Source of the DNA: Candidatus Omnitrophota bacterium
Lineage (GTDB): Bacteria > Omnitrophota > Gorgyraeia > B26-G9
Direction of reading: 5' to 3'
Length of the DNA stretch: 64,000 nt
Assembly (NCBI GenBank): GCA_043805415.1
Contig: JAZDHZ010000007.1
Span: 93,786 to 157,785, forward strand
Under the pieces are notes generated by a model. The model was not told the origin of the DNA, made no database searches, and saw only the letters and a program-made list of their open reading frames with translations. Every line of letters starts with the position of its first letter. The stretch's first letter is position 1. This document shows, piece after piece, positions 1 through 21,547 of the stretch. The position numbers were made by a program, and so were the translations under genes.

Positions 1-580
1 TTTCGATTCTTAAGGCCCGGCTGGAATTATTTTTCGGCGAGTTCTGAATTAACAACTGTCCGTGAAAAAGATTTTTAAAAACTATTCCCGCCAAGCCGCT
101 CTCTGGTTCCAGGCCGAATACTTTGGCTTTGGGATCAGCGAGAAAAACCCCCTGCCAGACATTATTCATCTCCGGGAAAACCCCTTTTTCCGCTTCACTG
201 AACCATTGCTCATAAGCATCCTTAAACATTATTCCGCTAAATGACTTTGTGATTGCTAATGGTTCTTTAACATCCAAATAAACCACCCAGCCAAAACCAT
301 TGTCAATTTTACTTATCTGCCAAAGCACTCTCAGCGGTAAATCCTCCCAATCAATGGTAATATGCAGAATATCTTGTTTTTCTTCCACCTGCCATATTCC
401 GCTGCTTGTATCATGCCAAGTCCCATTAATTAAAAAAGCCGTATGCAGGCCCAGATCATTGCTGCTCTTTGTTTTCTGATAATAAACCTGGATTTGTTTA
501 TCAGCAATAACCAGCCTGGACATGGAATTAACAAATTTATGTTTATTCAGCTTGGCGATAATTTTTTTTAATATCAGCAT
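1..580 (-). CDS. Hypothetical protein, 3'-partial (runs off window start). It is a stand-alone copy of the ~220-aa module repeated in the C-terminal extension of the Wzt-like ATPase.
   Basis: Absent from the supplied ORF track because it has no stop in the window. Manual check: the minus-strand frame (plus triplets starting at 2,5,8...) has no TTA/CTA/TCA from 2 to 580. ATG at 580-578 with GGAG (plus 588-591) 7 nt upstream. The translation MLILKKIIAKLNKHKFVNSMSRLVIADKQIQVYYQKTKSSNDLGLHTAFLINGTWHDTSSGIWQVEEKQDILHITIDWEDLPLRVLWQI... follows the same pattern as the ATPase repeats (e.g. RIRLFYDRKELTNGLCLYTAMKTKDYWFDSSQLLLQL...). Confidence 0.6.
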   Translation of the reverse strand, partial: MLILKKIIAKLNKHKFVNSMSRLVIADKQIQVYYQKTKSSNDLGLHTAFLINGTWHDTSSGIWQVEEKQDILHITIDWEDLPLRVLWQISKIDNGFGWVVYLDVKEPLAITKSFSGIMFKDAYEQWFSEAEKGVFPEMNNVWQGVFLADPKAKVFGLEPESGLAGIVFKNLFHGQLLIQNSPKNNSSRALRIE

Positions 581-721: not shown

Positions 722-1729
722 CTATTCGCTATCAAAATGACAACTAACCACTAAATGACAATTCCTCCGGCAATTATTTATCTGTTCAATATGCTTATCC
801 ATCTGTTCCGACAGACAAATCCGCTCCAGATTCTGCTTATTTTTTATATTATCGATTATTCCCAGCATCTGGCATTTTGACACATTTCCCGCAGGATCAA
901 TATTCAAAACATTGGCCTGAGCCAAATTACATCTATTGCTTTTAATAAAACTCACGGCATCAAAGAAATATTTTTTAAAAATTTTTAACTGGCCAATGCT
1001 GTCCGCGATTTTATAGCCCTGAGATTTAAACTCAATCAGCTGATTGATTATTCGCTCGATTTCCGGCTTATCGTTTGGCCAAAGGCTCTGATATTCATCA
1101 GACTGAAACCAATACTGATCAGCAGCTTCACTATAAGAAAAAGGCTGGGCTATGGCCTGAAAATTAATATACGCTAAGCGCTTGTCATTTTCCACCCACC
1201 GCGTCAGCTCAATTATATCCAAAAGATTAATCCCGCTGATCACAGTATTAATCCCGATACAAATATCCGGATTACTCTCAGCAATATTTTCAATTGCCTG
1301 TAGAACATGTTCCAATGCCCCGGGTTTGCCTCTGAGAAAATCATGAGTTTTTGGATTTAAACTATCCAGCGAAAAACAAATAAACTTTAAGCCAGAGGCA
1401 GCGATATTCGCTGCGATTTGTTTACTTACATAAAACCCATTGGAAATTAGCTGAATTTGAAGCCCTAAACCAATACCGTGTTTTATTAAATCAAATATAC
1501 CAGCGCGCAGTAAAGGTTCCCCCGGTCCGGAAAAATTAACAATACACTTACCGCGGTCCACAAATTCACTGATTTGCTCTAAAACATTCTTCCATTGTTC
1601 GATGGAAAGAATATTATCCGCGGTTAAAGGACTATCCTGCCAAAATTTGCACATCTGGCATTGAAAATTGCACTCATAGGCAATGCCCAAATCGCAATAT
1701 GTTAATTTTATATTATCTATTTTTTCCAT
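722..1729 (-). CDS. Radical SAM / SPASM-like domain protein (paralog 1 of 4)
   Basis: CxxxCxxC cluster motif C-NFQ-C-QM-C near the N-terminus. Also the GGEPLL-type 'SGPGEPLL' and 'SLDSLNPKTHDFLRGKPGALEHVLQAIENI'. C-terminal Cys-rich region (CNL...C..C..CRRNC..SC) consistent with an auxiliary Fe-S (SPASM/twitch) domain. Confidence 0.85.
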   Translation of the reverse strand: MEKIDNIKLTYCDLGIAYECNFQCQMCKFWQDSPLTADNILSIEQWKNVLEQISEFVDRGKCIVNFSGPGEPLLRAGIFDLIKHGIGLGLQIQLISNGFYVSKQIAANIAASGLKFICFSLDSLNPKTHDFLRGKPGALEHVLQAIENIAESNPDICIGINTVISGINLLDIIELTRWVENDKRLAYINFQAIAQPFSYSEAADQYWFQSDEYQSLWPNDKPEIERIINQLIEFKSQGYKIADSIGQLKIFKKYFFDAVSFIKSNRCNLAQANVLNIDPAGNVSKCQMLGIIDNIKNKQNLERICLSEQMDKHIEQINNCRRNCHLVVSCHFDSE

Positions 1730-1760
1730 TTTCTATTTTCTTTATGTTCTTGTGTCTTGT

Positions 1761-1780
1761 GGCCACGTCACGCCGTGGCC
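1761..1780 (-). other. GC-rich intercistronic hairpin (7-bp stem, 6-nt loop)
   Basis: ggccacg(1761-1767) tcacgc cgtggcc(1774-1780) is a perfect inverted repeat lying between rSAM paralogs 2 and 1. No U-tract follows on the minus strand, so it is not called a terminator. Confidence 0.4.
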
Positions 1781-1803
1781 CTACTATTCGCTATACGCTG
1801 CTT

Positions 1804-2838
1804 TCAATCTTCTTCAAAAAAACAATTGATTAAAAAATGACAGTTTTTCTTACAAGCTTTTATATTCTGCCTGATTATTCCGGCTTTTTCCGAGTTCCAG
1901 ATTATATTTATATCCTCCATCAGACGGATATCTCCGATCGGCTCAAAAGCAAAACAATGATAAATCAGTCCGATGGAACTGATATGTATTGCTTTATCCA
2001 TATTACAGCTGGTTTTTTTCACAAAGCTATCTGGATCGGATAAATACTGTTTCATTGCCTTTAGCTGAGCAATACCGTTATTTATTTTATAGCCTTTAGC
2101 TTTTAATTCTATTAACTGATCAAACAATTCACTGACCCGCTGATTGTTTTTCGGCCATAAAAACCCGTATTTGCCCTTCCACCAGTGTTCTTCCGGCAAA
2201 GTATTATTCGGCTGCATCGGCACAGTCAAAGACACATCTTTGATTTTGGGATTATCATTTACCCATTGCACCAGCTCAATTATCCCAGAATAATTCTGTT
2301 CATAAATCACACTGATCAGGGCTATTTCAATATCCGGCGCGAAACAATGCAGATTATCAATCGCCCGCATCAGCTGCGCGTAAACTCCCTCCACTCCCCG
2401 CAAATAATCATGGGTCTGCCTGTCCATGCTATCCAATGATAGTTTTATAGTTTTTAAACCTGATGCTGCCAAACGTTCGGCAGTATTCTGATCAATTAAA
2501 TATCCATTGGAGACTAAATTTGTGCGCAGTCCGGCTTTATCCGCTGCCGCGATCAGAGCGTAAATATCTTTATGCAGCAAAGCCTCTCCTCCGCCGAAAT
2601 TCAGCACAAAATCCTTGCTCACTATTTTTTTTAACTGATTAAGTAAACTCGCATACTGGCTAAGCGTGGGGAAGCAATCAGCCGCGGTATTTTTAATAAA
2701 AATATCCGGCTGCCATTTATAGCACATCTTACATTTAAGCATGCACTGATCAGTAATCCCTAAAGAAGCGAATTCCGCTTTTTCGCTTATTCGCGCCTGT
2801 TTGATTTGTTCCGGGCTATTATTTAACATATTCTTCAC
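1804..2838 (-). CDS. Radical SAM / SPASM-like domain protein (paralog 2 of 4)
   Basis: CxxxCxxC = C-MLK-C-KM-C. Also 'GGGEALL', 'SLDSMDRQTHDYLRGVEGVY' and the C-terminal Cys cluster (CNMD...C...CKKNC..NC). The start overlaps the stop of the upstream paralog (2819..2838), suggesting translational coupling. Confidence 0.85.
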   Translation of the reverse strand: MKNMLNNSPEQIKQARISEKAEFASLGITDQCMLKCKMCYKWQPDIFIKNTAADCFPTLSQYASLLNQLKKIVSKDFVLNFGGGEALLHKDIYALIAAADKAGLRTNLVSNGYLIDQNTAERLAASGLKTIKLSLDSMDRQTHDYLRGVEGVYAQLMRAIDNLHCFAPDIEIALISVIYEQNYSGIIELVQWVNDNPKIKDVSLTVPMQPNNTLPEEHWWKGKYGFLWPKNNQRVSELFDQLIELKAKGYKINNGIAQLKAMKQYLSDPDSFVKKTSCNMDKAIHISSIGLIYHCFAFEPIGDIRLMEDINIIWNSEKAGIIRQNIKACKKNCHFLINCFFEED

Positions 2839-3841
2839 TTTCGTTAAAGTTGCAGTTAACCAATGACTGACAGTTTTTTCGGCACAATTTTATCTCAGCG
2901 CGCGCCTGTTCTGCGCTCTGACTAAACCAGAGCTCACTGATCCTATTGCTTTTTATATTTCCGATTGCCTGTTTATCAAAGCATATATGCACGTCTCCGG
3001 TAGGCGTAATATTCAGTGCCCGCAGATCAAGATGACAATGATTTTGCTTTATAAAATCATTGGGCTGGGAAAAATATTTACTGAATACGGCAAACTGATC
3101 TTCCGGGTTTTCCAGCACAAAATCCGCGCGCAAATCAGAGCTGTTTTTAAGTTTTGCCAATTGGCACATTGTCTGCCGCACACAATCCTGATCATTGGGC
3201 CATAAAAAAGCGTATTCTGGTTTTTCATACCATTTATCATCAAACTCAGTATTGAACGGCTGGGTAATCGCCTGATAGCCTATGCCGTGAATGCGTTTAT
3301 CTTTATTGGCCCAAAGCGCGACTTCCACCGCGTCTTTGATATTATAACCGGATATTGTGGTTGTAATATCAATAATTATCCGCGGCGCGTATTTAGCCAG
3401 GCTTGCTATAGCCGCCGCAACTTTGTCAAAACTGCCGGGCTTACCGCGGAGAAAATCATGCGTCTTGGGATTAGCTGAATCCAGAGATATGGTTATCTGG
3501 TTTAATCCGGCTTTGGCTAAATCCTCAGCCATCAGGTCATCGAGCAGATAAGCATTTGTTGCCAGCAAAGTCTCAAAACCCTGTTCACGCGCCCAGCTGA
3601 TCAGTTCAATGGTTTCTTTTCTCAGCAAAGGCTCGCCTCCGGCAAAATTAATCCGCGGTTTTTTGGCCAGGCACATCTGCCCCAGATCAGTTATAAACGC
3701 TTTCCACTGGGTAATTGAAGGCTCCCGCGGATCTCTATATTCCACGGAATTATGCCATTTAAAGCACATCTTACAGCGCATAAAACAGCTCTCAAGTAAA
3801 GCAATACAGCAATATGTCGGTAATTTTTTGTTTTCATTCAT
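2819..3841 (-). CDS. Radical SAM / SPASM-like domain protein (paralog 3 of 4)
   Basis: CxxxCxxC = C-FMR-C-KM-C. Also 'AGGEPLL', 'SLDSANPKTHDFLRGKPGSF' and the C-terminal Cys cluster (CHLD...C...CRKNC..NC). Confidence 0.85.
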   Translation of the reverse strand: MNENKKLPTYCCIALLESCFMRCKMCFKWHNSVEYRDPREPSITQWKAFITDLGQMCLAKKPRINFAGGEPLLRKETIELISWAREQGFETLLATNAYLLDDLMAEDLAKAGLNQITISLDSANPKTHDFLRGKPGSFDKVAAAIASLAKYAPRIIIDITTTISGYNIKDAVEVALWANKDKRIHGIGYQAITQPFNTEFDDKWYEKPEYAFLWPNDQDCVRQTMCQLAKLKNSSDLRADFVLENPEDQFAVFSKYFSQPNDFIKQNHCHLDLRALNITPTGDVHICFDKQAIGNIKSNRISELWFSQSAEQARAEIKLCRKNCQSLVNCNFNESEEYVK

Positions 3842-3865
3842 GGAACTTTGTATCCTTGCAACTAG

Positions 3866-3968
3866 CTTATTCCTCGGTCTAGAATCAATTATTTCTGCTC
3901 ATTCTCGCCTTACATCCTGTAAGGCTCCGAGGATAAATCTCTGATTTTGCCAGTCCTAACAAAATCAG
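3866..3968 (-). other. Structured intergenic element (three nested/adjacent stem-loops) between rSAM paralogs 4 and 3
   Basis: Outer imperfect stem ttattcctcgg(3867-3877)/ccgaggataa(3927-3936). Inner perfect hairpin gccttaca(3907-3914)-tcc-tgtaaggc(3918-3925). Adjacent hairpin ctgattttg(3941-3949)-10 nt-caaaatcag(3960-3968). Confidence 0.4.
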
Positions 3969-4084
3969 GCTTTAAACCCGCAAAATAATTATTCTAGCCC
4001 TTTTTACTTTATCCTTTTTACTTTTTACTTCCATCTGTGTTCATCGATATTTTTTATTAGTGTTTATCACAAAAGCTTCTGCTT

Positions 4085-5125
4085 TTACTTTTCAAATTTA
4101 CAGTTAAGCAGGAAATGACAATTTTCCCGGCAATTATTAATTTCTTTTCGCACTAAATCCGCTTTTACGCTCTGCCACATTTCCCGCACTGATTTTTCCC
4201 GCACATCTCCCAAGCATTGATGGCGGTAACACATAAACATATCTCCTACAGAGCTGATATGAATCGCGTGATCAATATTACAGCTGCTCTGCTTCACATA
4301 GGTATCAGGATCAAGCAAATAGGTTTTAAACGCCTGGATATGCTCAATGGGATTACTAATCTTATAGCCTTTTGTTTTCAGCTGAATAAGCTGATCTAAA
4401 ACCGCTTCCGCCTGTTTATAATCCTTAGGCCATAGTTCATTAAACGCCGGGTCTTTCCACCACTGGGTTTGAAGTTCCGTATTATTTGGCTGCATCAGCA
4501 CCATCAGATAAATCATATTGATTTTATTATTTTCCTGAACCCAGTTAACCAGATCAACCATTCCGCCCAGCGTGGGCTGCATAATAATCGAGCAAATACT
4601 GATCTGGATATTAGGCGCGTACGCGTGCACCAGATCAATCGCGTTCATAACCTTATCATAAACCCCGTCAACTCCGCGCAAATAATCATGGGTTTTTCTA
4701 TTAAGACTGTCCAAAGAAATATTGATATAATCAAGCCCGCTGTCGCGCATCTTCTCAACCATTGGTTTATCCACAATGAAGGCATTGGTGGCAATATTGG
4801 TTTTAAACCCCAGTTCATGACAGAACTTAACCAGATCAAACAGCCATGGCACTGTAGTGATTTCTCCTCCCCCGAAATTAATAATAAAATCATTGGGCGC
4901 GATTTTACGCAAAGAAAGAGCGCTCTGTTTCCAGTCGTCAAGCCCCAGCTGTCTGCGATCATCTTTAATGTAAATATCCTGTTTCCACTTTTGACACATT
5001 CTGCAGCCCAGCATGCAATCATCGCAAATACTAAAGCAGCAAAATGTCAGTTTCGGGATCTGGCTGATATTTTCCTTTCTATTAGTAATATTATTCATTA
5101 TTAATCTCCGTAATTGTTTTAACAT
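4085..5125 (-). CDS. Radical SAM / SPASM-like domain protein (paralog 4 of 4)
   Basis: CxxxCxxC = C-MLG-C-RM-C. Also 'SLDSLNRKTHDYLRGVDGVY' and the C-terminal Cys cluster (CNID...C...CRENC..NC). An alternative, better-supported start is the ATG at 5098 (MNNITN...) with GGAG 7 nt upstream. Confidence 0.85.
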   Translation of the reverse strand: MLKQLRRLIMNNITNRKENISQIPKLTFCCFSICDDCMLGCRMCQKWKQDIYIKDDRRQLGLDDWKQSALSLRKIAPNDFIINFGGGEITTVPWLFDLVKFCHELGFKTNIATNAFIVDKPMVEKMRDSGLDYINISLDSLNRKTHDYLRGVDGVYDKVMNAIDLVHAYAPNIQISICSIIMQPTLGGMVDLVNWVQENNKINMIYLMVLMQPNNTELQTQWWKDPAFNELWPKDYKQAEAVLDQLIQLKTKGYKISNPIEHIQAFKTYLLDPDTYVKQSSCNIDHAIHISSVGDMFMCYRHQCLGDVREKSVREMWQSVKADLVRKEINNCRENCHFLLNCKFEK

Positions 5126-5128
5126 TAA

Positions 5129-8100
5129 TCATTCCTTATCCTTATTAACTTTAATCTTTATCTTAAATTCAATTTTCTTATCCTGAACAGTAATATTTTT
5201 AGTTTTGCTTAATATTACCCGGCTATTATGATTCTCATCCGTATCTTTAATAATATTATCCCAATCAACACTGCACCAAGCTTCCCAGCTAATTTCCGGC
5301 AATTTACTGTTTTCCGCGAAAACTTTCATCTTATTCTTAGACTCAGCGACCTGACGCCAAACATCCGGATTGCTCCGCGGCGCGAACATCCCGAATTTCC
5401 GGGGATGTTCAGATACCTGCCAATTAACAAATTCTTTGTTCAGCATTATTCCCACGGCTATATCTTCAATCAGCGCAGGATCCAACTCGAAATAAATCCG
5501 CCATAATATTTCATTATCATCACCGTATTCAATTTCCTGAGTATGAGCGATTAAACAGTCTGCTTTGAATTTCAGCCGGATCATATCAGCGGTTTTATCA
5601 AGCTGTAATAATAACTGGGATGAATCAAACCAGTAATCTTTTGTTTTCATGGCTGTATACAGGCATAAGCCGTTAGTCAGCTCTTTGCGGTCATAGAACA
5701 ATCTTATTCTAGCCTGATCCAAGACAAGTTTAATTCTGCCTTTGTTCAGTTCCTTTAGCGGCAAAGTTTTTTTCTGAACACAATTATGGTTAAAATCATT
5801 AATTTTTTTCTCTTCCGAAGAAAGCAGAATATTTGCTTTAAATATTTCATGCTTACCGGGTTCAAGAACAAATGCCTGTTCCGCGAGCAAACGTTTAACT
5901 CCCAAAACAATAATCTCTTTGTTCGCTGGCTTAAATATCTGCAGCAGCCATTGCCCCATATCAGCTAAAGGAGCAAAAGCAATTTCCGCTGACTGTTCCG
6001 CGGCTAAATCAGTTTGTTTTAAAACAATATACCGGCTGCGGTTGTCGATAAGGTCTATGGCTTGAAATCCCTGGTCATGATCATTTAAAGCGATTACTCC
6101 CTTACCTAGTTCGCTCAGCCAATGCCGAAAAACTTTGGGTAAAAACATATTTATTGTCAGCGCGTATATTGCTGTTTGTTCTAAAACTTCCAGTTCCACG
6201 ATCCAGGAAATATATCCCGCTTTTTCCTGTAAATACCAGTTCTGGACAAGGAGGGGATTATTATATGTAATTTTAATAAAAAGCGTATGCGGATCCTGTT
6301 TTTTAATCTGCCAGTGCCCCTGGAAAGAATCAAATTCATCATAAGCGCTGACGATTACTGCCAAACCGCAGTCAGCGCTGATCAGCTTATTTTGATAATA
6401 AAGTTCTGTTTTTTGCTGCTTGGCTGTTAATCGGCAAGTCTCTGAACAAACTATAGAAAAATCTTGTTCGCAGTATTCATCTATTCCCTTTTGCCAGGAT
6501 TCCGGATCAACGATATCAAGTTCGGCGCTAAAAACCGGCTTCTGATCGTTTAATTCTCCGGGGTTTAATTTAGCCTGAAACTGCAGGTTCCTTGAACGAT
6601 TTGAATACTGCAGCAAGGGAGTATAAGCAAACTCGCTTAAACTATTATGCTTAAACAGCACGGCGCAGCCGGCATCATCAGTACAGGCTCCCAGCAAACA
6701 GCTGTTTAATTCTGTAAGGTCAATAAGCTTGATTTCCTGCGCGTCATTGCTGAACCTATTTTTTTCATACGCATTAATCCACTGCCGGAATCGCGGATTT
6801 AGTATGATTCCCACTTTATATTCAAAAGCATCATTTAATTCAAGCGGGTCTAAATATACATTCCAAATAAGGCTATGCTGTTTTAATTCAATCCGCCAAG
6901 ACTCTTTTACCTTGGGAAATTTTCTCTGAATGCTTACCAGCAGATAATTATCTTTTTTTTCAATTTTTTTGGCCACACCATGCGATTCATACCAGCGCTT
7001 ATTTAAAAATATTCCGCTGCTAAACCCGGCTAAAGCCGCCGTAATCTCGGTCTGTCCGAAAAATAAACGAATCCTGTCTTGGCCGCAATCAATACGCAGC
7101 GAGTCATTGCCCAGGAGATTAGCGGAATTAAATTTATCTCTTTGCTTGGCAATAAACCGCTGTTTTTCCTCAGACTGTTCAATAACCATCATTCGGCAAT
7201 TAATTGACGCGCTGTCCTGACTGCTGATCCGAATCCGCCGGGTACTTAGTTCCTGGCGGCAATTATACAGATCAATCCGGGCATTATCATCCGCCTCGGC
7301 AATAAAATGCTTATCCTGCCGCGCCTTACTGCTTAAGCCGACAAACCCGCATTTATTATGTTTTAAAATAACCTTTTCGTCAAACTCAATCGCGGGTAGA
7401 AAATCATTTTCCTGAGTTAATTCAAAATACGAATCATAATCATCAGTCAGATCAGCGTCGATCCAGATTAAGCTCTGGCTCTGTTCTAGGCTTTGCCCAT
7501 TTTTCAGCGACATTTTAAGCAATAATTCCTTGCCGGTTAAAATTAAATTTAATCTTACCTGAATCTGTTGCGTAAAAAATTCAGAATCAACCGCGAATTC
7601 CGCCTCACTGATCTTTGTGATTTTCCATTTTCCCTCAAATATATTATAAACATGATTTTGCTGTTTAAATCCGCAAACCAGTCCAAAGCCTTTGCTTATT
7701 TGTTCTGTTCCGTTAAAAAGCTGAAAACTTTTTTCTTCCAGCTTAAGCGTTAAACTATCTTTGCTGATGCGGATTTTTTCCTGCTGCTGCCTGAGCTTTT
7801 GTTCCAGCTGTTTTTTATCCAGCAGCTGAATCAGGGTTTTACATACCGCGCTTTGTTTCTGGTCTAAGAAAACATGCGTTTGGATAATATTTGCCGCGAA
7901 ACCTTCCTGGCGCTGGATCAAACCAAAACCGCGCTGCTGGTCGATATTAAAATTCGCCCAGACCGCGGGGATATCCGAATCAGCCGCGGACAATACCAGT
8001 AAAGCCTCCTTCTGGTCAGTACGATACAAATCCTGGCATTGCTCAGTGGTAAAATTTTCCGCGGCCCGCATAGGTTTTATTTTATCCGCGTCCAGATAAT

Positions 8101-9184
8101 GTTTATATTGATCATTAAACATAAAGCCGAAAACCGCTCTTTCCGCTTTTTGATCAGCCGTCAGGTTAATACTGCCGATACATTCAAATTCTCGCTCATT
8201 CTCCAGTTTAACCTGGATTTGCGCGCTTATCCGATTAGCCCATTGCCCCTGGACAAGAAAAAAATCTTTTTCGGTTTTAATTACCTGCCAATTCGCCTCC
8301 CAGGACATCAGCCATTTATCCCAGAGTTTTAAGCTTAAATACCCGCCAAAATCAGCGGTTATCGGTTTTCCGTCCCAAAGCAAGACAAGCCTTCCGCTAT
8401 TAAAAATAATGCTCAGTTTTTCCTGGTCAATGCAGGCAATAGCCTGTTTCTGCCCCACTGCCTGGACATAGCGGATAATTGATTTATGGATTGAGTCATC
8501 TTTTACTATCTGTCCGGTTTTCAGCAAAATACCCCGGGTGGCAATCCGGCTTAAAGAATCCAGATCATGGGAAACAATTACCACGGTCGCACCTTGTTTG
8601 TTCATTTCCATTATTCGCTTTAAACACTTAGCCTGAAACTCGGCATCGCCCACAGCCAGACTGTCATCAATCAGGAAAATATCCGGATTTACATGCACAG
8701 CCACGGAAAAGCCTAAACGCACGAGCATGCCCTGGGAATAAGTTTTTACCTGAGAGTCAATGAACTCATTTAGCCCGGAAAATTCAACGATTTCAGCAAA
8801 CAGGGCGTGAGTCTGTTTTTTACTCAAACCATAAAGCGCGGCATCAAGATAGATATTTTCTCTTCCGGTTAATTCCGGATGAAATCCCGCGCCTAAATCA
8901 AGCAGTCCCGCTACTTTGCCTTTAACATATATTTGCCCGCTGGAGGGCACCGTGATTTGGCTGATAATCCTCAGAATTGTTGTTTTGCCTGAAGCGTTTT
9001 CTCCGATAATCCCCAGAATCTCGCCTTTTTGCACTGAGAAACTAATATCTTTTAATGCCAAGACCTCGCGCTTGTTCCGGGCTTTTTTAAAAAAAGACAG
9101 AAAATTGCTGACTAAGAATTGTTTCCCTGAATTAAAACAATACTTTTTGCTGATGTTTTTCAGTTCAATAACTTTTTCTGACAT
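5129..9184 (-). CDS. Polysaccharide-exporter ABC ATPase (Wzt/TagH-like) fused to a ~1,100-aa C-terminal extension of five repeat modules
   Basis: Walker A GENASGKTT (aa 61-69; nt ~8978-9004), signature YSQGMLVRLGF, Walker B IFLIDDSLAVGD, H-loop VSHD. It lies next to an ABC-2 permease. From aa ~250 onward the protein is non-ATPase and internally repetitive. Confidence 0.85.
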   Translation of the reverse strand: MSEKVIELKNISKKYCFNSGKQFLVSNFLSFFKKARNKREVLALKDISFSVQKGEILGIIGENASGKTTILRIISQITVPSSGQIYVKGKVAGLLDLGAGFHPELTGRENIYLDAALYGLSKKQTHALFAEIVEFSGLNEFIDSQVKTYSQGMLVRLGFSVAVHVNPDIFLIDDSLAVGDAEFQAKCLKRIMEMNKQGATVVIVSHDLDSLSRIATRGILLKTGQIVKDDSIHKSIIRYVQAVGQKQAIACIDQEKLSIIFNSGRLVLLWDGKPITADFGGYLSLKLWDKWLMSWEANWQVIKTEKDFFLVQGQWANRISAQIQVKLENEREFECIGSINLTADQKAERAVFGFMFNDQYKHYLDADKIKPMRAAENFTTEQCQDLYRTDQKEALLVLSAADSDIPAVWANFNIDQQRGFGLIQRQEGFAANIIQTHVFLDQKQSAVCKTLIQLLDKKQLEQKLRQQQEKIRISKDSLTLKLEEKSFQLFNGTEQISKGFGLVCGFKQQNHVYNIFEGKWKITKISEAEFAVDSEFFTQQIQVRLNLILTGKELLLKMSLKNGQSLEQSQSLIWIDADLTDDYDSYFELTQENDFLPAIEFDEKVILKHNKCGFVGLSSKARQDKHFIAEADDNARIDLYNCRQELSTRRIRISSQDSASINCRMMVIEQSEEKQRFIAKQRDKFNSANLLGNDSLRIDCGQDRIRLFFGQTEITAALAGFSSGIFLNKRWYESHGVAKKIEKKDNYLLVSIQRKFPKVKESWRIELKQHSLIWNVYLDPLELNDAFEYKVGIILNPRFRQWINAYEKNRFSNDAQEIKLIDLTELNSCLLGACTDDAGCAVLFKHNSLSEFAYTPLLQYSNRSRNLQFQAKLNPGELNDQKPVFSAELDIVDPESWQKGIDEYCEQDFSIVCSETCRLTAKQQKTELYYQNKLISADCGLAVIVSAYDEFDSFQGHWQIKKQDPHTLFIKITYNNPLLVQNWYLQEKAGYISWIVELEVLEQTAIYALTINMFLPKVFRHWLSELGKGVIALNDHDQGFQAIDLIDNRSRYIVLKQTDLAAEQSAEIAFAPLADMGQWLLQIFKPANKEIIVLGVKRLLAEQAFVLEPGKHEIFKANILLSSEEKKINDFNHNCVQKKTLPLKELNKGRIKLVLDQARIRLFYDRKELTNGLCLYTAMKTKDYWFDSSQLLLQLDKTADMIRLKFKADCLIAHTQEIEYGDDNEILWRIYFELDPALIEDIAVGIMLNKEFVNWQVSEHPRKFGMFAPRSNPDVWRQVAESKNKMKVFAENSKLPEISWEAWCSVDWDNIIKDTDENHNSRVILSKTKNITVQDKKIEFKIKIKVNKDKE
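5132..8416 (-). other. Five tandem ~220-aa protein repeat modules within the ATPase extension
   Basis: Module anchors of type x-I/L-x-L-F/Y..G.E.IT...GL lie at aa ~257, 478, 696, 917 and 1149 (nt ~8416, 7753, 7099, 6436, 5740). Examples: LSIIFNSGRLVLLWDGKPIT; LTLKLEEKSFQLFNGTEQIS; LRIDCGQDRIRLFFGQTEIT; CRLTAKQQKTELYYQNKLIS; IKLVLDQARIRLFYDRKELT. Each is followed by W..W.(I/V) and L.W.(I/V) motifs. Confidence 0.6.
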
Positions 9185-9208: not shown

Positions 9209-9988
9209 TTAAGTAAAATCAGCGAAAAATTTCTTATTATTCCTAAATAAAACAATGCCCAATATCCCAAAGCCAAGGCTTATGCCCAGCATCCAGCCAA
9301 GGGCAAAAAAACCGGGAACTTTAGCATAAAGCAAAATATCCCGGTAAGCGTTTATATACAAGCTCAAGGGATTAAGGTAAAAAAATCCTCGGATATTTTC
9401 CGGAACCAAAGACAAAGGATAAAAAATCGGAGTAGCATAAAACCATACCAGCATAATCAGCTCAATAATATATTTCACATCCCGGTAAAAAGTATGCAAA
9501 GCCGCCACAGACAGGCAAAGCCCAACAATAAATACAGTCTGAAGAATGATTATCAGCGGCAGATAAACCCACGGCCAGCTGGGGAAAATTCTAAAATAAG
9601 CTAAAAACGCGAATAGGAGAAACTGGGAAATAAGAAAATTAAACAGATTCGCGCAAACAACGGAAAGCGGAATCACTTCATAAGGAAAATAAGCTTTTTT
9701 AATCAGACTGGCATTATCGACTATTGAAGTCGCGGCCGCGGTTAAAGAAAAATTCAGAAAAAACCAGGGCAAAAGCGCGCTCAGAAGAAATACCGGATAA
9801 TTGGCAATCTGGATCTTCATAATAAAAGTAAACACCAGGCTGAAAACCAGCATTAAAAGCAAAGGATTGAGCAAAGACCATAGCCAGCCTAAGACCGCTG
9901 ACTTATACTTTATTTTTATTTCTTTTTTAGTCAGGCTGATAATCAAATTGCGGTAAGCATAAATGCTTTTTATATAAGCGTAACTCAT
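9209..9988 (-). CDS. ABC-2 type polysaccharide-exporter permease (Wzm/TagG-like)
   Basis: 259 aa with about six hydrophobic segments. The N-terminal 'YRNLIISLTKKEIKIKYKSAVLGWLWSLLNPL' is typical of ABC-2 permeases. It sits immediately upstream of the cognate ATPase. Confidence 0.8.
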   Translation of the reverse strand: MSYAYIKSIYAYRNLIISLTKKEIKIKYKSAVLGWLWSLLNPLLLMLVFSLVFTFIMKIQIANYPVFLLSALLPWFFLNFSLTAAATSIVDNASLIKKAYFPYEVIPLSVVCANLFNFLISQFLLFAFLAYFRIFPSWPWVYLPLIIILQTVFIVGLCLSVAALHTFYRDVKYIIELIMLVWFYATPIFYPLSLVPENIRGFFYLNPLSLYINAYRDILLYAKVPGFFALGWMLGISLGFGILGIVLFRNNKKFFADFT

Positions 9989-11277
9989 AGTTTATTTATC
10001 TCCTGAGCAATAACCTTTCCATCAATAATCACATCTTCCATTGACATGTATTTCCATTGCCCAAACCGTCCCACGGGAAAGATATTATTCGCTTTTAAAA
10101 AATCATTCAGCGCCTGCATGCTCAGACGATAATTATGATCATATACAACATAGGCATATTTAATATTATGCGCGTGGGAAACTAAAATAAGATCATCCTT
10201 GGTTAAAATCCCAGCGCTGATCAAATCATTTTGGATTATTTTATTTATATCTTTTTTGGGCAAAGGTTTATTTTCGGAATATGATACTTCCGCGTATAAA
10301 GAACTTTTATTCGCGGGAGCAACATTCTGCGAAAAATTCATCGGAAACCCCAGCCGAAAAAAAACAAACTTATCTTCCGGATAATAAATCCAGTGTTTAT
10401 CACTTATCCGCGGCCGGTCAATGCCCAGATTAAGATTATATATTGAGATATATCTAAGCTGGGAAAACGCGGTTTTTACTTTTTCCGGCATCTTATTAAC
10501 AATTAGTTTCTTTAATTCAATCATCGGCAAAGAACAAATAAGCTGCGTAAACTTTTCGGTTCGGCCATTATTAAATTTTACTGTTTTCTGCTCGAGATCT
10601 ATTGCCTGCGTCTCATGTTCAGTATATATGTTTTTGACCTGGTTAGCAAAAGCTTTTGCCAGCTGATCAATTCCCCCGGTTTGCGGATACCAGAATTCAC
10701 TATTATAACCCAAGGCTTTGGTTTTTAAAGTAAATGCTCCATCCAGGACTGTTTTTATTTTTACCTGAGGAACATAATTCACTGTCCAATCAGCTATAAG
10801 CTCTTGCGGCGGCACAGTCCAAAATTTATAGTTATAGGGATACATGAAATATTTTGTTATCCCCTTGCCAAACCTATCTAACATCCACTCGTAAAGATTT
10901 TGCTGGTCATTATCTTTTGTTTTCAATGAGGCTTTGAGCATTCCGAGAATGCATTTTTTTACTATTTGCAAAGGCAAGCCAAAAGTATTTGCCTGAAAAG
11001 GATATTTCGTATAGATATCATGAGAGTAAATCCAGGCATTACGCTTATGGCTAGATAATAAATCCGGCAAAAGTTTATTAATTAATTGTTTAACATAATT
11101 GGTTTTAAAATGCAGAAGATGCCCATCATAATCAAAAATAAAACCATTCACCAAATCAGTGCGGGCAAGACCGCCGACCTGGTCTTCTTTTTCAAATATC
11201 TTAACTTCATCCTGAATATGAAAAGCAGTGCTTAATCCAGCAAGCCCAGCACCTAAAATTATAATTTTCTTACTCAT
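9985..11277 (-). CDS. FAD/NAD(P)-binding oxidoreductase, UDP-galactopyranose-mutase / amine-oxidase-like
   Basis: N-terminal Rossmann motif KIIILGAGLAGLSTA (GxGxxG) followed by 'IFEKEDQVGG'. The C-terminal 'GRFGQWKYMSMEDVI' resembles the Glf-family C-terminus. 4-nt ATGA overlaps with both neighbours. The exact activity is not determinable. Confidence 0.6.
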   Translation of the reverse strand: MSKKIIILGAGLAGLSTAFHIQDEVKIFEKEDQVGGLARTDLVNGFIFDYDGHLLHFKTNYVKQLINKLLPDLLSSHKRNAWIYSHDIYTKYPFQANTFGLPLQIVKKCILGMLKASLKTKDNDQQNLYEWMLDRFGKGITKYFMYPYNYKFWTVPPQELIADWTVNYVPQVKIKTVLDGAFTLKTKALGYNSEFWYPQTGGIDQLAKAFANQVKNIYTEHETQAIDLEQKTVKFNNGRTEKFTQLICSLPMIELKKLIVNKMPEKVKTAFSQLRYISIYNLNLGIDRPRISDKHWIYYPEDKFVFFRLGFPMNFSQNVAPANKSSLYAEVSYSENKPLPKKDINKIIQNDLISAGILTKDDLILVSHAHNIKYAYVVYDHNYRLSMQALNDFLKANNIFPVGRFGQWKYMSMEDVIIDGKVIAQEINKL

Positions 11278-12290
11278 TCATTTATTTCCAATCGGCTTAA
11301 TTTCATTCCGACTAAACACATAATGCTAATAACCAATAAAAACATAAATAAACCCAAAGTATTTGAACCGAGAAAAATCACTAATGCGCAGCAATTAGTG
11401 ATAATCGCCAGGATGATCATTATCCGCAATATCGATCCCTTGGAAATTCCGATTTTAAGCATTCTGAATACAAAATGATCATTACTTTTCATAAAAATAG
11501 ATTTTTTTTGCCTAAACCGCACAAAAATAACAAAAAGCATATCAAAAAGCGGTAAAGCCAGGATTACTAGAGGGATAACCAAACCGATTTCATGACCTGT
11601 GGGCGCGAAACTTAATGATATTGCCATTACTGCCAGGGAAAACCCCAAAAACTGACTGCCCGCATCACCCATAAATATCCGCGCCGGAGGCAGATTATAT
11701 TTTAAAAAAGCAATTAAAACCGCACACTGAAGTCCGGCGATAAGGATAACAAAATGATTGTTTGTTAAAACCGCAAAAATCAAAAAAACAATCGTACTGA
11801 TTAAAGCCACGCCCCCAGCCAGCCCATCAAGTATATCCAGCAGATTAAACGCGTTAATCAATAAAATAATCCAGAAAAAACTCAAAACTATATTAAAAAA
11901 AGTGTTCAGATAAACAATCTCTGTTCGCATCACAAAACCAATTAGCAGCATTGCCCCGAGGAATTGCCCTGCCAGTTTTTCCCTGGGATTCATTTCTTTA
12001 ATATCATCATAAAAGCCAAGCAATGTGATAATCGCGGCTGCCAGCATAAACATACAGAATCCAAATAAGTCAATCGAGAAACAAGGAAAGCGGACAAACG
12101 CGAAACCAAGAATTAAAAACACACTGAACATGCCGATTCCGCCAAGATAAGGAACCTGTCTTGGATCTATTTTTTGCGGAGCAGGACCAGTAACAAAACC
12201 CTTAGCTTTCGCGAATTTTTCCAACAAGGGCAATAAAAAATAGCATAAGCCAAAAGCACTGATAAATAATAAACCAATAGTACTGGACAT
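11274..12290 (-). CDS. Glycosyltransferase family 4 polyprenyl-phosphate sugar-1-phosphate transferase (WecA/MraY family)
   Basis: Polytopic membrane protein with the family motifs 'FYDDIKE', 'NAFNLLDILDGLAGG' and 'FMGDAGSQFLGF'. It is the first gene of the glycan-export operon. Confidence 0.8.
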   Translation of the reverse strand: MSSTIGLLFISAFGLCYFLLPLLEKFAKAKGFVTGPAPQKIDPRQVPYLGGIGMFSVFLILGFAFVRFPCFSIDLFGFCMFMLAAAIITLLGFYDDIKEMNPREKLAGQFLGAMLLIGFVMRTEIVYLNTFFNIVLSFFWIILLINAFNLLDILDGLAGGVALISTIVFLIFAVLTNNHFVILIAGLQCAVLIAFLKYNLPPARIFMGDAGSQFLGFSLAVMAISLSFAPTGHEIGLVIPLVILALPLFDMLFVIFVRFRQKKSIFMKSNDHFVFRMLKIGISKGSILRIMIILAIITNCCALVIFLGSNTLGLFMFLLVISIMCLVGMKLSRLEINE

Positions 12291-12478
12291 AATTTAAACC
12301 TTATATATTTTAATTCAGAACAGAGGTGACTCCCCACTATAATTTACAGACAATACAATTAATACAGGGCTAGATTAGCTTGCTTAGATAAAAACAGCCT
12401 GTGCTTTGCTGAAAATTGAAGCTAATTATTCGCAACACCTTGAAATTATAAATAGTTAGACTATTTTCGTGTAAAAAT

Positions 12479-12507
12479 AATATAGCAAAAAACAGCTAAG
12501 TTGTCAA
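12479..12507 (-). promoter_or_regulatory. Candidate sigma70-type promoter for the wecA-like operon
   Basis: The minus strand reads TTGACA (12507-12502), a 17-nt spacer, then TATATT (12484-12479), about 190 nt upstream of the ATG at 12290. AT-rich background makes chance matches possible. Confidence 0.4.
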
Positions 12508-12625
12508 ATGAATAGAATCTGTAAATCAGAAAGGAAAACAGGAGAAATAAAGGAATTTTAAAAGTCAGGAATTGCTATGGAAATATGGTTTATTCCGCGG
12601 ACTCAACTTAAGACAAACATATAAC

Positions 12626-13009
12626 TTATGACGACAGCTCTAATCCTTCGAGAAAATCATCAACAATTTTTTTATTCTGGTCATTTTTCCACCAGGAAAA
12701 GCTTATCCCTGATCTATATTTATCAGCATCCTGGTAAGTCCATTCCACTTTGCCGAAAACTCTTATTGGGCTAATAGTTTCATTTAGTAAAATATCTATA
12801 CTTAGACGTGTGCCAACAGCCATTGTTTCTTTTGAATAAATTCCTGCGCCGAAAAGAGTAAAATCCCGCAAAAAGCATTCTGTTCCGTTCCAATAGCGAA
12901 ACCATGCCTGCGGATCTAAGGGCCTAACCTGTACAGCTGATTTATCAGCTAATTTTCTTATATTCGCTCTCTGTTCCTTTGCGATAATATCCATATTTTT
13001 TTGCTCCAA
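12626..13009 (-). CDS. Stand-alone PilZ domain protein (putative c-di-GMP receptor)
   Basis: RxxxR (R-ANI-R) followed by a D-x-S/T-x-x-G-type motif (DFTLFGAG). About 55% identical by eye to the PilZ gene at 37540..37899 (shared RPLDPQ.WFR.WN, IRVFGKVEW, SFSWWK). Confidence 0.75.
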   Translation of the reverse strand: MEQKNMDIIAKEQRANIRKLADKSAVQVRPLDPQAWFRYWNGTECFLRDFTLFGAGIYSKETMAVGTRLSIDILLNETISPIRVFGKVEWTYQDADKYRSGISFSWWKNDQNKKIVDDFLEGLELSS

Positions 13010-13262
13010 TTCAGCTTATTTCAGATTAATAGTTTCTTTAATTTATTTGCTCTTATTTAATCTATTTTTCAAACCCGCAGAGAATAAATCAAAACTATTT
13101 CCCATAGTTTTATAAAGCCTTTTTAAATATTTCATAAGTTTACACTAATGTTTAATTTTTTGCAAATTATTTTTTAAAAATGACAACCATTTTCACGTCA
13201 CCGCGTCGTGGAACGGTTGCAGCCAAATGGATGAATTAAGTATTGTGTCCCTTTATTTACCT

Positions 13263-13937
13263 TTATTTAGGCAGGGAAATTGTAGCAGTATAGTCATTTT
13301 TGTAAAATTCAGGGTTTGTTGTTTGTGTGCCCATGCCCATTTCTATGGTAATCAATACTTCTATCTTGCTCGGCGCTCCGTCAGTTCGTGAATCCCAGTC
13401 AATGAATGGAGCTCCGGAGCTGTCAAAAAAAGTAAATTGTAAATCAGTGATATTTTCGGAAAATGGATCGCTTGATCCAGTATTAAAATTAAAATCAAAA
13501 CCAACCGGATCTAAGGTTTTTCTACCGTCAGTAACATAAAATCTTTCTAATACATCATCATTTAATTCCGCGGTTCCCTGCCCATCCAGCCAGAATCCAA
13601 CTTCACATAAATCGGATTTATCAGCTTCATTTGGATTTAAAGCAGCAATAAAATAAAGTTCATCGCCAATGCTATCTGTTCTCCATCCGCTGGGAGTGGT
13701 TTTATCAAATCCTAAACAATAAAAATTATTACCTTCTCTAATCACCGCGCTGGAAATCTCTCGAGTCATTCGATCTAAAACAACCCGCGCGATAGTCGTA
13801 GATTTTAAAATATTATCCGCCTTTTTCCAAGCACGCAAAGAAACATTAAAAACCGAATACAAAATCGCTATCAGTAAAGCAAGAATTCCGATAGAAACTA
13901 AAAGCTCAATCAGGGTAAATCCTTTTTTTAAAACCAT
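13263..13937 (-). CDS. Type II secretion / type IV pilus-like pseudopilin (GspJ/PulJ-like)
   Basis: Prepilin-type N-terminal cleavage/methylation motif KKG|FTLIELLVSIGILALL followed by 'VVLDRMTREISSA', as in minor pseudopilins. The start overlaps the stop of the upstream gene. Confidence 0.75.
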   Translation of the reverse strand: MVLKKGFTLIELLVSIGILALLIAILYSVFNVSLRAWKKADNILKSTTIARVVLDRMTREISSAVIREGNNFYCLGFDKTTPSGWRTDSIGDELYFIAALNPNEADKSDLCEVGFWLDGQGTAELNDDVLERFYVTDGRKTLDPVGFDFNFNTGSSDPFSENITDLQFTFFDSSGAPFIDWDSRTDGAPSKIEVLITIEMGMGTQTTNPEFYKNDYTATISLPK

Positions 13938-16240: not shown

Positions 16241-16278
16241 CCGTCCTTGGCTAAACTACACTATTCATAGTTAATTTC

Positions 16279-18231: not shown

Positions 18232-18285
18232 ATAATATCGGGTATCAGTTGATTTAGGGTTTCAGGTTAAATGACTTAAGGTTTA

Positions 18286-20149: not shown

Positions 20150-21439
20150 TTATTTTTTGCCTGTTTCTTTGTCCTGTTCAGGTTCTTTATCCTGATATTC
20201 TTTATTCCAAAGCTTACGCAAAACATAATAAGCTTTCCTTGGGTTTCTTTTATTTAAACCATTGGCATCAAGCTCAGGATCTAAGCCCACAATCCCGAAC
20301 CATTCTTCATTCATATTCTTGTCCGCTTTAGCGTCAAAATCATATGAACCCATGCCCCAAGCAGCGACATTATCATGAACCCACCAGCTGTTTCGATCGC
20401 TTTCCGAGCTTTTCCACCATTCATCATTCCATTCAAATACAACTCCGCCCAGACAATTACCCACTCCCTCGCCGCCATCCATGTTGTTTTGAATGTCAAG
20501 CCATTGACTTTTCAAAAATTTTGCCTGGTTTTTCTGATCTTCTTGTTTTTTCACCATATTATAGGCGTCACAGCCAAACTCGGTTAAAATAACCGGCCGG
20601 TCAAACTTACGTTTTACTTCTTTAAAAAAGTTGCCAAATACCTTACCGCGATAGACAATACATCCAAGCAAATCAATATCCGGACAATTTTCCGCTGCTA
20701 TTTTCAGACCAACAGTCTCACCATTGCCTAAAGAGACCAGATGGATAGGATCAATTTCCTTTATTTTTTTAGCCAGTTCATTAACAAAGGAATAATATAT
20801 TTTAGCCCGCGCGTCTCTTTTTTTGCCAAAACTATCCATTGCGTCGATTTCATCGCTTGACCAGGGATTTATTCTGCCGTCAAAACTATAATTATTTTCA
20901 TTGCCTAAATTCCAGATTAGTATTCCAGGGGTATCTTTAAAATATTCTACTGTATTTAAGACTTTCTCCGTGATTTCTTTTCTAAACTCCGGATCAGCAT
21001 AATTAGCAGGAGGATAATCCCAAAAACCAAGCGTATAGCCTAAAATAGTCCGAATCCCGTATATCTTATATAAGTCCTCAATCATTGTCCGACAAAATTC
21101 CAGCTCATCTCCGCTATGATAGAGTCTGATCGTATTCACACCCATTTCTTTCATTAATTTTCCATCAACTAACCAGGGTCGCTTCGGGTCGCAGACAAAA
21201 TTATATAAAATTCCCTGCTGACCTATGGGCACTGGGGAATAACAAACCCCTTTTACAATAAACGGTTTTTTATCAACAATCAGCTGATAGTTATATTTTT
21301 GTTCATCTTCTCTGCTTTGTTTTTTAATTTTTATTTTCTTAATATAAACCTTACCCTTAGGCTCTTGTTTTAACAGACTGCATCCTGTGATTAATAAAAA
21401 AATTAATAATAACGTAATTTTACGAATTTCCATATTCAT
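20150..21439 (-). CDS. Lipoprotein, clan GH-A (beta/alpha)8 glycoside hydrolase/transglycosylase with GH72 (Gas/Gel)-like motif series
   Basis: Lipobox LLITG|C. Motifs run in GH72 order: FIVKGVCYSP, MGVNTIRLY, IWNLGNENNY (candidate acid/base E), LGNGE, DLLGCIVYRG, PVILTEFGCDAY (candidate nucleophile E), GGVVFEW. Paralog of 23063..24955. Confidence 0.6.
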   Translation of the reverse strand: MNMEIRKITLLLIFLLITGCSLLKQEPKGKVYIKKIKIKKQSREDEQKYNYQLIVDKKPFIVKGVCYSPVPIGQQGILYNFVCDPKRPWLVDGKLMKEMGVNTIRLYHSGDELEFCRTMIEDLYKIYGIRTILGYTLGFWDYPPANYADPEFRKEITEKVLNTVEYFKDTPGILIWNLGNENNYSFDGRINPWSSDEIDAMDSFGKKRDARAKIYYSFVNELAKKIKEIDPIHLVSLGNGETVGLKIAAENCPDIDLLGCIVYRGKVFGNFFKEVKRKFDRPVILTEFGCDAYNMVKKQEDQKNQAKFLKSQWLDIQNNMDGGEGVGNCLGGVVFEWNDEWWKSSESDRNSWWVHDNVAAWGMGSYDFDAKADKNMNEEWFGIVGLDPELDANGLNKRNPRKAYYVLRKLWNKEYQDKEPEQDKETGKK

Positions 21440-21547
21440 ATTAAAAAAACCTTTCCCCTGATTTTAAAATTATTACCCAATACATCTCTTCACTCTTGCT
21501 TTGAAAAATCACCCATCTAAGCTAAATTACAATCTCATATAGCAAAT

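Follow-up and report, generated by a model that had tools for sequence, protein, structure and literature searches.

ABC-transporter-dependent export of glycans is known from a few model systems, in which a single jelly-roll domain on Wzt reads the chain-terminating cap. Characterised Wzt proteins carry one such carbohydrate-binding domain (CBD), which is responsible for recruiting capped O antigen and also modulates the ATPase (PMC9445017). The WzmWzt O-antigen exporters of E. coli O9a, Raoultella terrigena and Aquifex aeolicus (PMC9445017) provide the closest solved relatives of the nucleotide-binding domain (NBD) and permease described here, which are encoded in a window of 64,000 nucleotides (the whole stretch of DNA analysed) from a Candidatus Omnitrophota contig. 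The NBD in this window is followed by five tandem modules, and modules of the same family are present on radical SAM enzymes of the same gene clusters. We propose that the modules are non-catalytic glycan-recognition domains that recruit a radical-SAM-tailored, lipid-linked glycan to these enzymes and to the exporter. The probability of this reading, taken jointly with the assignment of the ATPase to a Wzm/Wzt-type exporter predicted for a polyprenyl-linked glycan, is about 0.5.

A Wzm/Wzt-type exporter among glycan and radical SAM genes

The ATPase gene and its neighbours are as follows:

5129..9184, (-), Wzt-like ABC ATPase gene, NBD plus five modules (ORF translation, 1351 aa)
8450..9184, (-), NBD of the ATPase, aa 1-245 (phmmer against the PDB, E 8.2e-60)
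9209..9988, (-), Wzm-like ABC-2 permease (PF01061, 1.3e-16; best PDB match Aquifex Wzm 6m96_B, 9.5e-22)
9985..11277, (-), amine-oxidase/UDP-galactopyranose-mutase-like flavoprotein (PF01593, 3e-20)
11274..12290, (-), WecA/MraY-family polyprenyl-phosphate sugar-phosphate transferase (PNPT), glycan-initiating (PF00953, 6.3e-35)
722..5125, (-), four tandem radical SAM genes, 4085-5125, 2819-3841, 1804-2838 and 722-1729 (Pfam)
1..580, (-), 5' portion of a gene truncated at the window edge (translation; module HMM iE 3.6e-37)

The sole Pfam match of the 1351-aa ATPase (identical to P0001, which is annotated as a Candidatus Omnitrophota MAG protein) was ABC_tran (aa 44-175, 3.7e-18), and the protein has no hydrophobic segment and is hence predicted to be soluble. 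Its designation as Wzt-like in the original prediction was borne out: phmmer searches of the PDB placed the NBD closest to A. aeolicus Wzt (6amx/6m96/8dku, E 8e-60) and the permease closest to Aquifex Wzm (E 1e-21). Further NBD matches were to TarH (2.5e-48), TagH (6.6e-47) and mycobacterial RfbE/Wzt (1.3e-40), and TagH and Wzt models were the top NCBIfam matches, all under their equivalog cut-offs. The NBD is therefore homologous to Wzt/TagH/KpsT-class ATPases, as expected of a Wzm/Wzt-type (type V, ABC-2) glycan exporter. The adjoining permease gene terminates 25 bases ahead of the start codon of the ATPase gene, and the PNPT in the gene string links the exporter genetically to polyprenyl-linked glycan synthesis, a likeness shared with the operons of WzmWzt O-antigen exporters.

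The flavoprotein gene lies directly upstream of the permease gene in six of the seven related loci readable there (L001, L003, L004, L006, L007/L008 and L012; it is missing at that position in L011). Its best NCBIfam matches (PRK07208-type, 1.4e-56; UGM N-terminus, 8.8e-10) were both under cut-off, as was that of the PNPT to TIGR02380 wecA (3.4e-26). Relatives' clusters add further glycan genes (GT-B, GT2, DegT aminotransferase, YdjC and PNPT). A chain-extending glycosyltransferase was found neither in the window operon nor within 10 kb in the orthologues, where the PNPT was the only, and initiating, transferase; hence, the substrate could be very short or non-polymeric.

Radical SAM genes are consistently abundant around the genes for module-bearing proteins. 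The four at 722..5125, a block also present in orthologous loci L001 and L004, matched Pfam Radical_SAM at 1e-17 to 1e-21, with a clear SPASM domain in two of the four, and none matched an NCBIfam model at its cut-off. A lipid-modifying role resembling that of Tes, Grs or Hbs was considered for these enzymes and rejected, the NCBIfam Tes match being generic and far under cut-off. Tes/Grs/Hbs-like genes do occur in Omnitrophota.

The gene at the window edge starts with an ATG at 580 and reads off the window start. It had been taken for a free-standing sixth module; a module is indeed encoded there (iE 3.6e-37), but the product is 73% identical (tblastn) to the N-terminus of an 1183-aa protein of syntenic loci, the orthologues of which carry three tandem modules followed by Radical_SAM and SPASM domains:

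L001, 12173-15724, 1183-aa orthologue, three modules plus Radical_SAM and SPASM
L004, 19134-22685, 1183-aa orthologue, same architecture
L010 (with L001), 10001-13552, 1183-aa orthologue, same architecture

Judged by orthology, the module at 1..580 is thus the first of three that precede the radical SAM/SPASM part of an enzyme of ~1183 aa.

Five modules with a predicted supersandwich fold

The C-terminal extension of the ATPase divides into five modules:

7787..8449, (-), module 1 (M1), aa 246-466 (hhalign self-alignment; module HMM iE 7e-62)
7133..7786, (-), module 2 (M2), aa 467-684 (module HMM iE 1.3e-49)
6470..7132, (-), module 3 (M3), aa 685-905
5768..6469, (-), module 4 (M4), aa 906-1139 (module HMM iE 6e-64)
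5132..5767, (-), module 5 (M5, terminal), aa 1140-1351 (module HMM iE 1.1e-56)

Self-comparison with hhalign, using a profile of an eight-orthologue alignment covering aa 240-1351, gave off-diagonal alignments at shifts of one, two, three and four modules (E 7.5e-31, 1.6e-23, 1.4e-12 and 2.3e-11, respectively). Equivalent positions fall at aa 252, 473, 691, 912 and 1146, in agreement with the anchors proposed originally for five ~220-aa copies (aa 257, 478, 696, 917 and 1149), from which they differ by a constant offset of 3-5 residues. The module HMM likewise found exactly five domains in the ATPase (iE 1e-49 to 1e-64), a result that is partly circular because the model was built from those very sequences. 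Pairwise BLAST linked only M3, M4, M5 and the partial ORF at 1..580 (E 1e-6 to 1e-10), and M1 and M2 were detectable only with profiles.

The modules are specialised by position, and the internal ones are conserved position-specifically across orthologues. M1 is the most conserved (0.62 identity), exceeding M5, and M2 is the most divergent of the five and is without counterpart in most four-module arrays. All ATPase arrays share the M1 and M5 ends, and those with four modules correspond to M1-M3-M4-M5. An AlphaFold model of the five-module array (pLDDT 73.5, pTM 0.44) comprises beta-modules joined by helices of 12-19 residues.

A confident single-module model resembles, across the whole domain, the galactose-mutarotase-like beta-supersandwich, a superfamily represented among carbohydrate-active enzymes, which makes the recognition role suggested in the original prediction plausible. 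The expected likeness to the Wzt C-terminal domain did not hold: the module is a different, larger fold, no Wzt CBD entry was among its top fold matches, and Wzt_C (PF14524) was absent from the ATPase extension and from single modules in Pfam searches. The module profile had no match among PDB sequences at E<=10, and Pfam searches of eight single modules at the same threshold returned only noise, without Aldose_epim (PF01263). The same supersandwich also occurs in the P1 domain of YidC and in an NDH subunit; the fold alone is therefore no proof of sugar binding.

The set of the 16 best-conserved residues, derived from 410 modules, comprises T, G, S, Q, N, R, P, five W, Y and F. Mutarotase catalysis uses His, Glu and Asp, and these are at none of the 16 positions; therefore, the signature suits a binding surface rather than mutarotase catalysis. 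This bears on whether the modules could themselves be active or relict aldose-1-epimerase-like enzymes acting on the substrate sugars. We regard such catalysis as very improbable, given also that identity to epimerase-type fold neighbours is only 5-10% and that the modules are shorter (~220 aa) than epimerases (290-380 aa).

Signature residues are unevenly retained. Four of five full-length modules attached to radical SAM domains keep 15-16 of the 16, and the fifth keeps 12. In the five modules of the ATPase, only 6-10 are kept (7 in M1, 6 in M2, 9 in M4 and 10 in M5), and some of these may have lost the ancestral predicted binding site. In every architecture, the terminal module is the most canonical (about 13-15 of 16 residues) and the internal ones are degenerate.

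Distribution of the modules and their possible roles

An exhaustive profile search recovered 626 module-bearing cluster representatives at 50% identity, and we consider the module, judged by this breadth and its 16-residue signature, to be a well-defined new domain family. All members named by source are Candidatus Omnitrophota, a breadth that rests on those source names (a scan of species-representative genomes with a single protein returned one locus). Architectures were surveyed in the best 150 of the 626 by summed score, a ranking that favours multi-copy proteins, together with the eight orthologues. Among these, Wzt-like ATPases carried two (21 proteins), three (43), four (13) or five modules (18), so that the exporter design is, as first supposed, unusual beside a single jelly-roll CBD but not unique, being one end of an Omnitrophota series.

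In the same set, the fusion partners of modules also include radical SAM, B12-radical SAM, GT-C glycosyltransferase and sulfatase domains. Occurrence outside exporters, together with a fold unrelated to binding domains, had been named originally as evidence against exporter-linked recognition, and such occurrence is literally what is seen; these contexts are, however, enzymes of the same clusters, and they therefore strengthen a shared-substrate reading rather than refute it. For example, a 1401-aa protein of these clusters has two radical SAM domains with a module after each, radical SAM proteins of L006 and L011 also bear modules, and P0013 and P0128 are triple fusions of ATPase, modules and radical SAM domain. 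The sulfatase-type fusion has an N-terminal signal anchor and the GT-C fusions are multi-TM, placing both probably outside the cytoplasm.

This distribution could also reflect docking, with the modules acting as protein-protein domains that assemble module-bearing radical SAM enzymes on the ATPase, one partner per module, into a membrane-associated tailoring-and-export complex. The presence of modules on the ATPase and on radical SAM enzymes within one operon, the covalent fusions in P0013 and P0128, the position-specialised modules conserved across orthologues and the interaction-platform role that supersandwich domains play in YidC and NDH would all fit. However, at L005, L007 and L012 (L007/L012 being considered together), the downstream DNA that was read encodes no module-bearing protein besides the ATPase, so that module-module docking cannot be the general role, and module number does not follow radical SAM gene number at the loci seen. 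Moreover, the occurrence of modules on both sides of the membrane is easier to reconcile with product recognition than with binding of a cytoplasmic partner. We therefore consider docking rather unlikely.

The discrete series of two, three, four and five modules on otherwise homologous ATPases, apparently grown via internal insertion, raises a further alternative in which binding of the glycan terminus falls to the distal, canonical module alone, and the degenerate internal modules and their helical linkers set distance, such that arrays of different size select or accommodate products of differing length. Such a spacer would agree with the canonical last module and the helices of 12-19 residues, but position-specific conservation of the internal modules, with M1 above M5, exceeds what a passive spacer needs, and array geometry was not reliably predicted (pTM 0.44). 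Classical chain-length rulers, such as the coiled coil of WbdD, also sit on the terminating enzyme and not on the exporter. A distance-setting role is quite unlikely, and the ruler-like array of interchangeable repeats entertained in the original prediction is unlikely because the modules are specialised by position.

Under the preferred glycan-recognition reading, five differing, non-catalytic modules on each ATPase protomer would replace the single jelly-roll CBD of classical Wzt. The modules would bind the glycan chain of a lipid-linked polymer and concentrate it at the tailoring enzymes first and subsequently at the exporter, analogous to the recruitment of capped O antigen by the Wzt CBD. 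The distal module would retain the ancestral binding signature, and the diverged proximal and internal modules may serve either as position-specific readers of modified states or as spacers.

A bolder extension of glycan recognition is that the arrays organise an undescribed tailoring-and-export system, so far seen in Omnitrophota only, with the ATPase array as a multi-site checkpoint or assembly-line scaffold. One recognition domain would be spread over the ATPase (in two to five position-specialised copies), radical SAM and B12-radical SAM enzymes, and extracytoplasmic GT-C and sulfatase-type enzymes, and a heavily radical-SAM-modified, lipid-linked glycan would be released for export only after tailoring was complete. 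We offer this as speculation that is, on balance, unlikely to hold in full.

Ultra-small bacteria that are possibly host-dependent make up the phylum Omnitrophota. The clusters represent a conserved, unstudied class of Omnitrophota gene cluster, combining a Wzm/Wzt exporter with five to nine radical SAM domains, and their content implies that a glycan or glycolipid of the cell surface undergoes unusual radical chemistry. The module family is ready for immediate annotation.

Comparison with known systems

The NBD also scores highly against models and structures of TagH/TarH from the TagGH/TarGH wall teichoic acid exporters, and TagH of the B. subtilis type has a long C-terminal extension too (NCBIfam PRK13545, 549 aa). 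The match is, however, to the NBD only: the extension here is without a transmembrane segment and unrelated in sequence, and the host belongs to Omnitrophota rather than to a Gram-positive lineage. Galactose-mutarotase-like domains occur in glycoside hydrolases, glycan phosphorylases and aldose 1-epimerases, in contrast to which the modules (5-15% identical to their fold neighbours) have no sequence-family match and no conserved catalytic His/Glu, and form tandem arrays attached to an ABC ATPase and to radical SAM enzymes, settings for which the searched literature gave no example. Tandem carbohydrate-binding modules (CBMs) offer another likeness, in that both are beta-domains (predicted to be non-catalytic here) with conserved aromatic and polar residues, and both occur in differing numbers on enzymes with a common substrate. 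Classical CBMs are extracellular and located on degradative enzymes, whereas the modules here are mostly cytoplasmic, on a biosynthetic exporter and radical SAM enzymes, and their binding is putative.

Literature searches returned no description of a multi-module Wzt or of clusters joining radical SAM genes with Wzm/Wzt. The proposed recruitment of a lipid-linked glycan would be shared with the WzmWzt O-antigen exporters, which have one jelly-roll of ~150 aa where the ATPase here has five supersandwiches of ~220 aa. The module is also found here on the radical SAM, GT-C and sulfatase-type enzymes of the cluster, and radical SAM/SPASM and B12-radical SAM genes dominate, which was not found as a feature of described O-antigen clusters. 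Compared with reading a chain-terminating cap by a single jelly-roll, this locus represents a different solution, with an unrelated fold, in graded numbers of two to five copies on the exporter, held in common with the enzymes predicted to modify the substrate, and the arrangement points to a new coupling of glycan tailoring with export.

Five divergent modules on the exporter ATPase

The window ATPase carries five divergent copies of the module (M1 to M5). Although pairwise BLAST linked only M3, M4, M5 and the ORF cut by the window start to one another (E 1e-6 to 1e-10), comparison of residues 240–1351 with themselves by hhalign, based on an alignment of eight orthologues of the window ATPase (1337–1353 aa), gave E values of 7.5e-31, 1.6e-23, 1.4e-12 and 2.3e-11 for shifts by one, two, three and four modules, respectively. 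The five-module C-terminal extension of the original prediction is hence real, and its anchor positions correspond to equivalent residues across M1 to M5 (252/473/691/912/1146), displaced by 3–5 residues.

Modules of the window ATPase
aa 246–466: M1
aa 467–684: M2
aa 685–905: M3
aa 906–1139: M4
aa 1140–1351: M5

The exporter core at this locus is of the Wzm/Wzt type. The sole Pfam match of the 1351-aa ATPase is ABC_tran (aa 44–175), and the closest solved structure to aa 1–245 is the Aquifex aeolicus Wzt NBD (E 8.2e-60), with TarH/TagH and the mycobacterial galactan exporter ATPase as the next-closest solved relatives. No hydrophobic segment was found in the protein; its sequence exactly matches that of a database protein from a metagenome-assembled genome of Candidatus Omnitrophota.

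Genes at the exporter locus in the window
1..580, minus strand: partial ORF running off the window, with its ATG at 580; matches the module model (iE 3.6e-37)
722..5125, minus strand: a run of four small radical SAM genes, downstream of the ATPase, with clear SPASM domains in two of the four
5129..9184, minus strand: Wzt-like ATPase, 1351 aa (from the ORF listing and translation)
9209..9988, minus strand: ABC-2 permease directly upstream of the ATPase; best solved relative Aquifex Wzm (9.5e-22)
9985..11277, minus strand: amine-oxidase/UGM-like flavoprotein (PRK07208-type, score below cut-off)
11274..12290, minus strand: WecA/MraY-family polyprenyl-phosphate sugar-phosphate transferase (PNPT) in the same gene string as the ATPase

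Just upstream of the exporter operon (12626..18231, minus strand) are genes for a 127-aa PilZ protein, a 224-aa pseudopilin with an N-methylation motif, a 767-aa product (13937..16240, minus strand) and a 650-aa PilZ-domain protein. In L004 (1..4116), a syntenic locus, the orthologous operon is likewise preceded by a block comprising large ORFs and a pseudopilin. Elsewhere in the window, next to an MFS_2 sugar transporter of 505 aa, lies a pair of TIM-barrel-like proteins of GH2 type, 429 and 630 aa long (20150..26525, minus strand). Other large minus-strand ORFs encode 1422 aa (26830..31098) and 1191 aa (31140..34715), and neither the 1422-aa nor the 767-aa product had a Pfam match at E ≤1e-3. 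The last 26 kb is taken up by one very large ORF encoding at least 8657 aa (38025..63998, minus strand), which may extend further because its listed ATG lies 2 bases from the window end.

Fold and distribution of the module family

The module matched no Pfam family, no NCBIfam model and none of the PDB sequences, even by profile at E ≤10. An AlphaFold2 model of M3 based on a 30-module alignment was confident (pLDDT 91.6, pTM 0.88) and consisted of an all-beta domain with a C-terminal helix. The predicted fold, a galactose-mutarotase-like beta-supersandwich with which the Foldseek result accords, is typical of sugar-handling proteins. No C-terminal carbohydrate-binding domain (CBD) of Wzt was among the fold neighbours listed, and the Wzt_C model (PF14524) did not match the module. 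The 16 most conserved positions across 410 modules (M3 numbering: T31, G36, W47, S50, W55, Q77, W79, W90, Y115, W118, G125, F127, P157, N176, R181 and F201) are aromatic and polar residues. Mutarotases employ His/Glu/Asp residues for catalysis; a conserved set of this kind is absent from these positions, and it is unlikely that the modules act as catalytic epimerases.

When the module profile was searched exhaustively with HMMER against 1.84 billion cluster representatives, 626 proteins matched at E ≤1e-3 (520 at E ≤1e-10). A word-indexed protein search had given no matches for either a 193-aa module fragment or a 22-module alignment, but given the hundreds of relatives found by HMMER, these negatives are no sign that the family is absent. 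We classified the architectures of the best 150 of the 626 proteins, together with eight orthologues, using local HMMs. Ninety-seven had a Wzt-like NBD followed by modules, numbering two (21 proteins), three (43), four (13), five (18) or six to seven (2). Multiple modules recur on homologous exporters, with the five-module array being one form in a series (18/97). The remainder comprised many gene fragments and several clear other architectures, and the module is therefore not confined to exporter ATPases. Pfam-confirmed examples include radical SAM/SPASM proteins with N-terminal modules (P0028, P0130, P0140 and P0151), B12-radical SAM proteins (P0078 and P0115) and nine representatives that are PMT_2/GT39 GT-C glycosyltransferases with two to four C-terminal modules. 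The module also occurs on a sulfatase-type enzyme that bears a signal anchor at its N-terminus (P0147/P0161). In two metagenomic proteins, P0013 (1856 aa) and P0128 (1217 aa), a Wzt-like NBD is followed by five or two modules, respectively, and a C-terminal radical SAM/SPASM domain, such that the exporter ATPase is covalently joined to a tailoring enzyme. The module is common to the tailoring enzymes of the cluster and to probably extracytoplasmic enzymes. While most members are metagenomic proteins, every organism-assigned member derives from Candidatus Omnitrophota, including ATPases with five, four, three and two modules, a GT39 fusion and radical SAM fusions.

A conserved radical-SAM-rich cluster

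The ORF cut by the window start was originally taken to be a free-standing sixth module. It does encode a module but, by orthology, does not stand alone: where two orthologous ATPases have loci syntenic with this one (L001/L002 and L004), its position is occupied by a gene for a 1183-aa protein, in which three tandem modules (iE 1e-35 to 1e-46) precede a radical SAM/SPASM domain. The window fragment shares 73% identity with the N-terminus of this protein (tblastn). The following gene encodes a third module-bearing protein.

Gene following that of the 1183-aa protein
L010 (Omnitrophota MAG JAHITY010000114.1), 13581..17786: 1401-aa protein

This protein is composed of a B12-binding radical SAM domain (aa 1–450), a canonical module (aa 508–733), a second radical SAM domain of SPASM type (about aa 790–1130) and another canonical module (aa 1182–1401), with a hydrophobic segment at aa 474–493. 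Together with the ATPase, these proteins bring the orthologous cluster to ten modules, and the window edge cuts the second of its three module-bearing proteins.

Comparison of seven loci of ATPases with two, three, four or five modules showed that this radical-SAM-rich cluster type is conserved. The Wzm permease was directly upstream of the ATPase wherever that region could be read, and the flavoprotein was immediately upstream of the permease in six of the seven readable loci (L001, L003, L004, L006, L007/L008 and L012; the exception is L011), often with the PNPT gene upstream too. Downstream of the ATPase are runs of radical SAM/SPASM and B12-radical SAM genes, some of whose products are themselves module-bearing. 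In L006, a 1299-aa protein (15220..19119) contains three Radical_SAM/SPASM units, and L007 encodes a 638-aa GT2-radical SAM fusion (12025..13941). Two-module loci hold classical glycan genes (several GT-B, GT2, DegT aminotransferase and YdjC), and a GT-C fusion locus contains six radical SAM genes. No chain-extending glycosyltransferase was found in window-type clusters within the DNA examined.

Array growth and putative function

Identity among orthologues was 0.82 for the NBD, 0.62 for M1, 0.56 for M3, 0.51 for M4, 0.50 for M5 and 0.46 for M2. Modules are positionally orthologous across architectures: in arrays of two to five modules, the first most frequently resembles M1 and the last M5, and four-module arrays follow the order M1-M3-M4-M5. 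In every architecture, the terminal module best keeps the family signature (about 13–15 of the 16 residues), and internal modules are degenerate. The window modules retain 7/16 (M1), 6/16 (M2), 10/16 (M3), 9/16 (M4) and 10/16 (M5) residues. Of the five full-length modules attached to radical SAM domains in the orthologous cluster, four retain 15–16/16; the fifth, which comes first in the 1183-aa protein, retains 12/16. This combination of positional orthology, canonical terminal modules and degenerate internal ones suggests that arrays grew by insertion and divergence of internal modules, flanked by a conserved module next to the NBD and a canonical one at the distal end; the repeats are not interchangeable. 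A whole-array model joins the beta-modules by helices of 12–19 residues, although the placement of the domains in it cannot be relied on (pTM 0.44).

Solely from fold and gene context in an uncultured phylum, we infer that the modules bind the glycan; the diverged modules of the ATPase could be readers of modified states, or spacers. One main rival reading, a spacer or ruler with a distal binding module, is compatible with the graded module numbers and with the canonical module at the array's end. The other, a scaffold in which the modules act as protein-docking domains, is weakened by clusters with modules on the ATPase only in the DNA read downstream and by the fusions to probably extracytoplasmic enzymes. 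Within Pfam, NCBIfam, PDB sequences and the searched literature, we did not find such a module extension (in its fold, multiplicity and positional specialization), a module common to radical SAM enzymes and an exporter, or the cluster type itself. The architecture would surprise a glycan-export specialist, and the hypotheses arising from it are directly testable. The window exporter is itself a member of an already known kind. Wzt CBDs are strand-swapped jelly-roll dimers, one for each Wzt (PMC9445017), whereas the window ATPase carries five modules.
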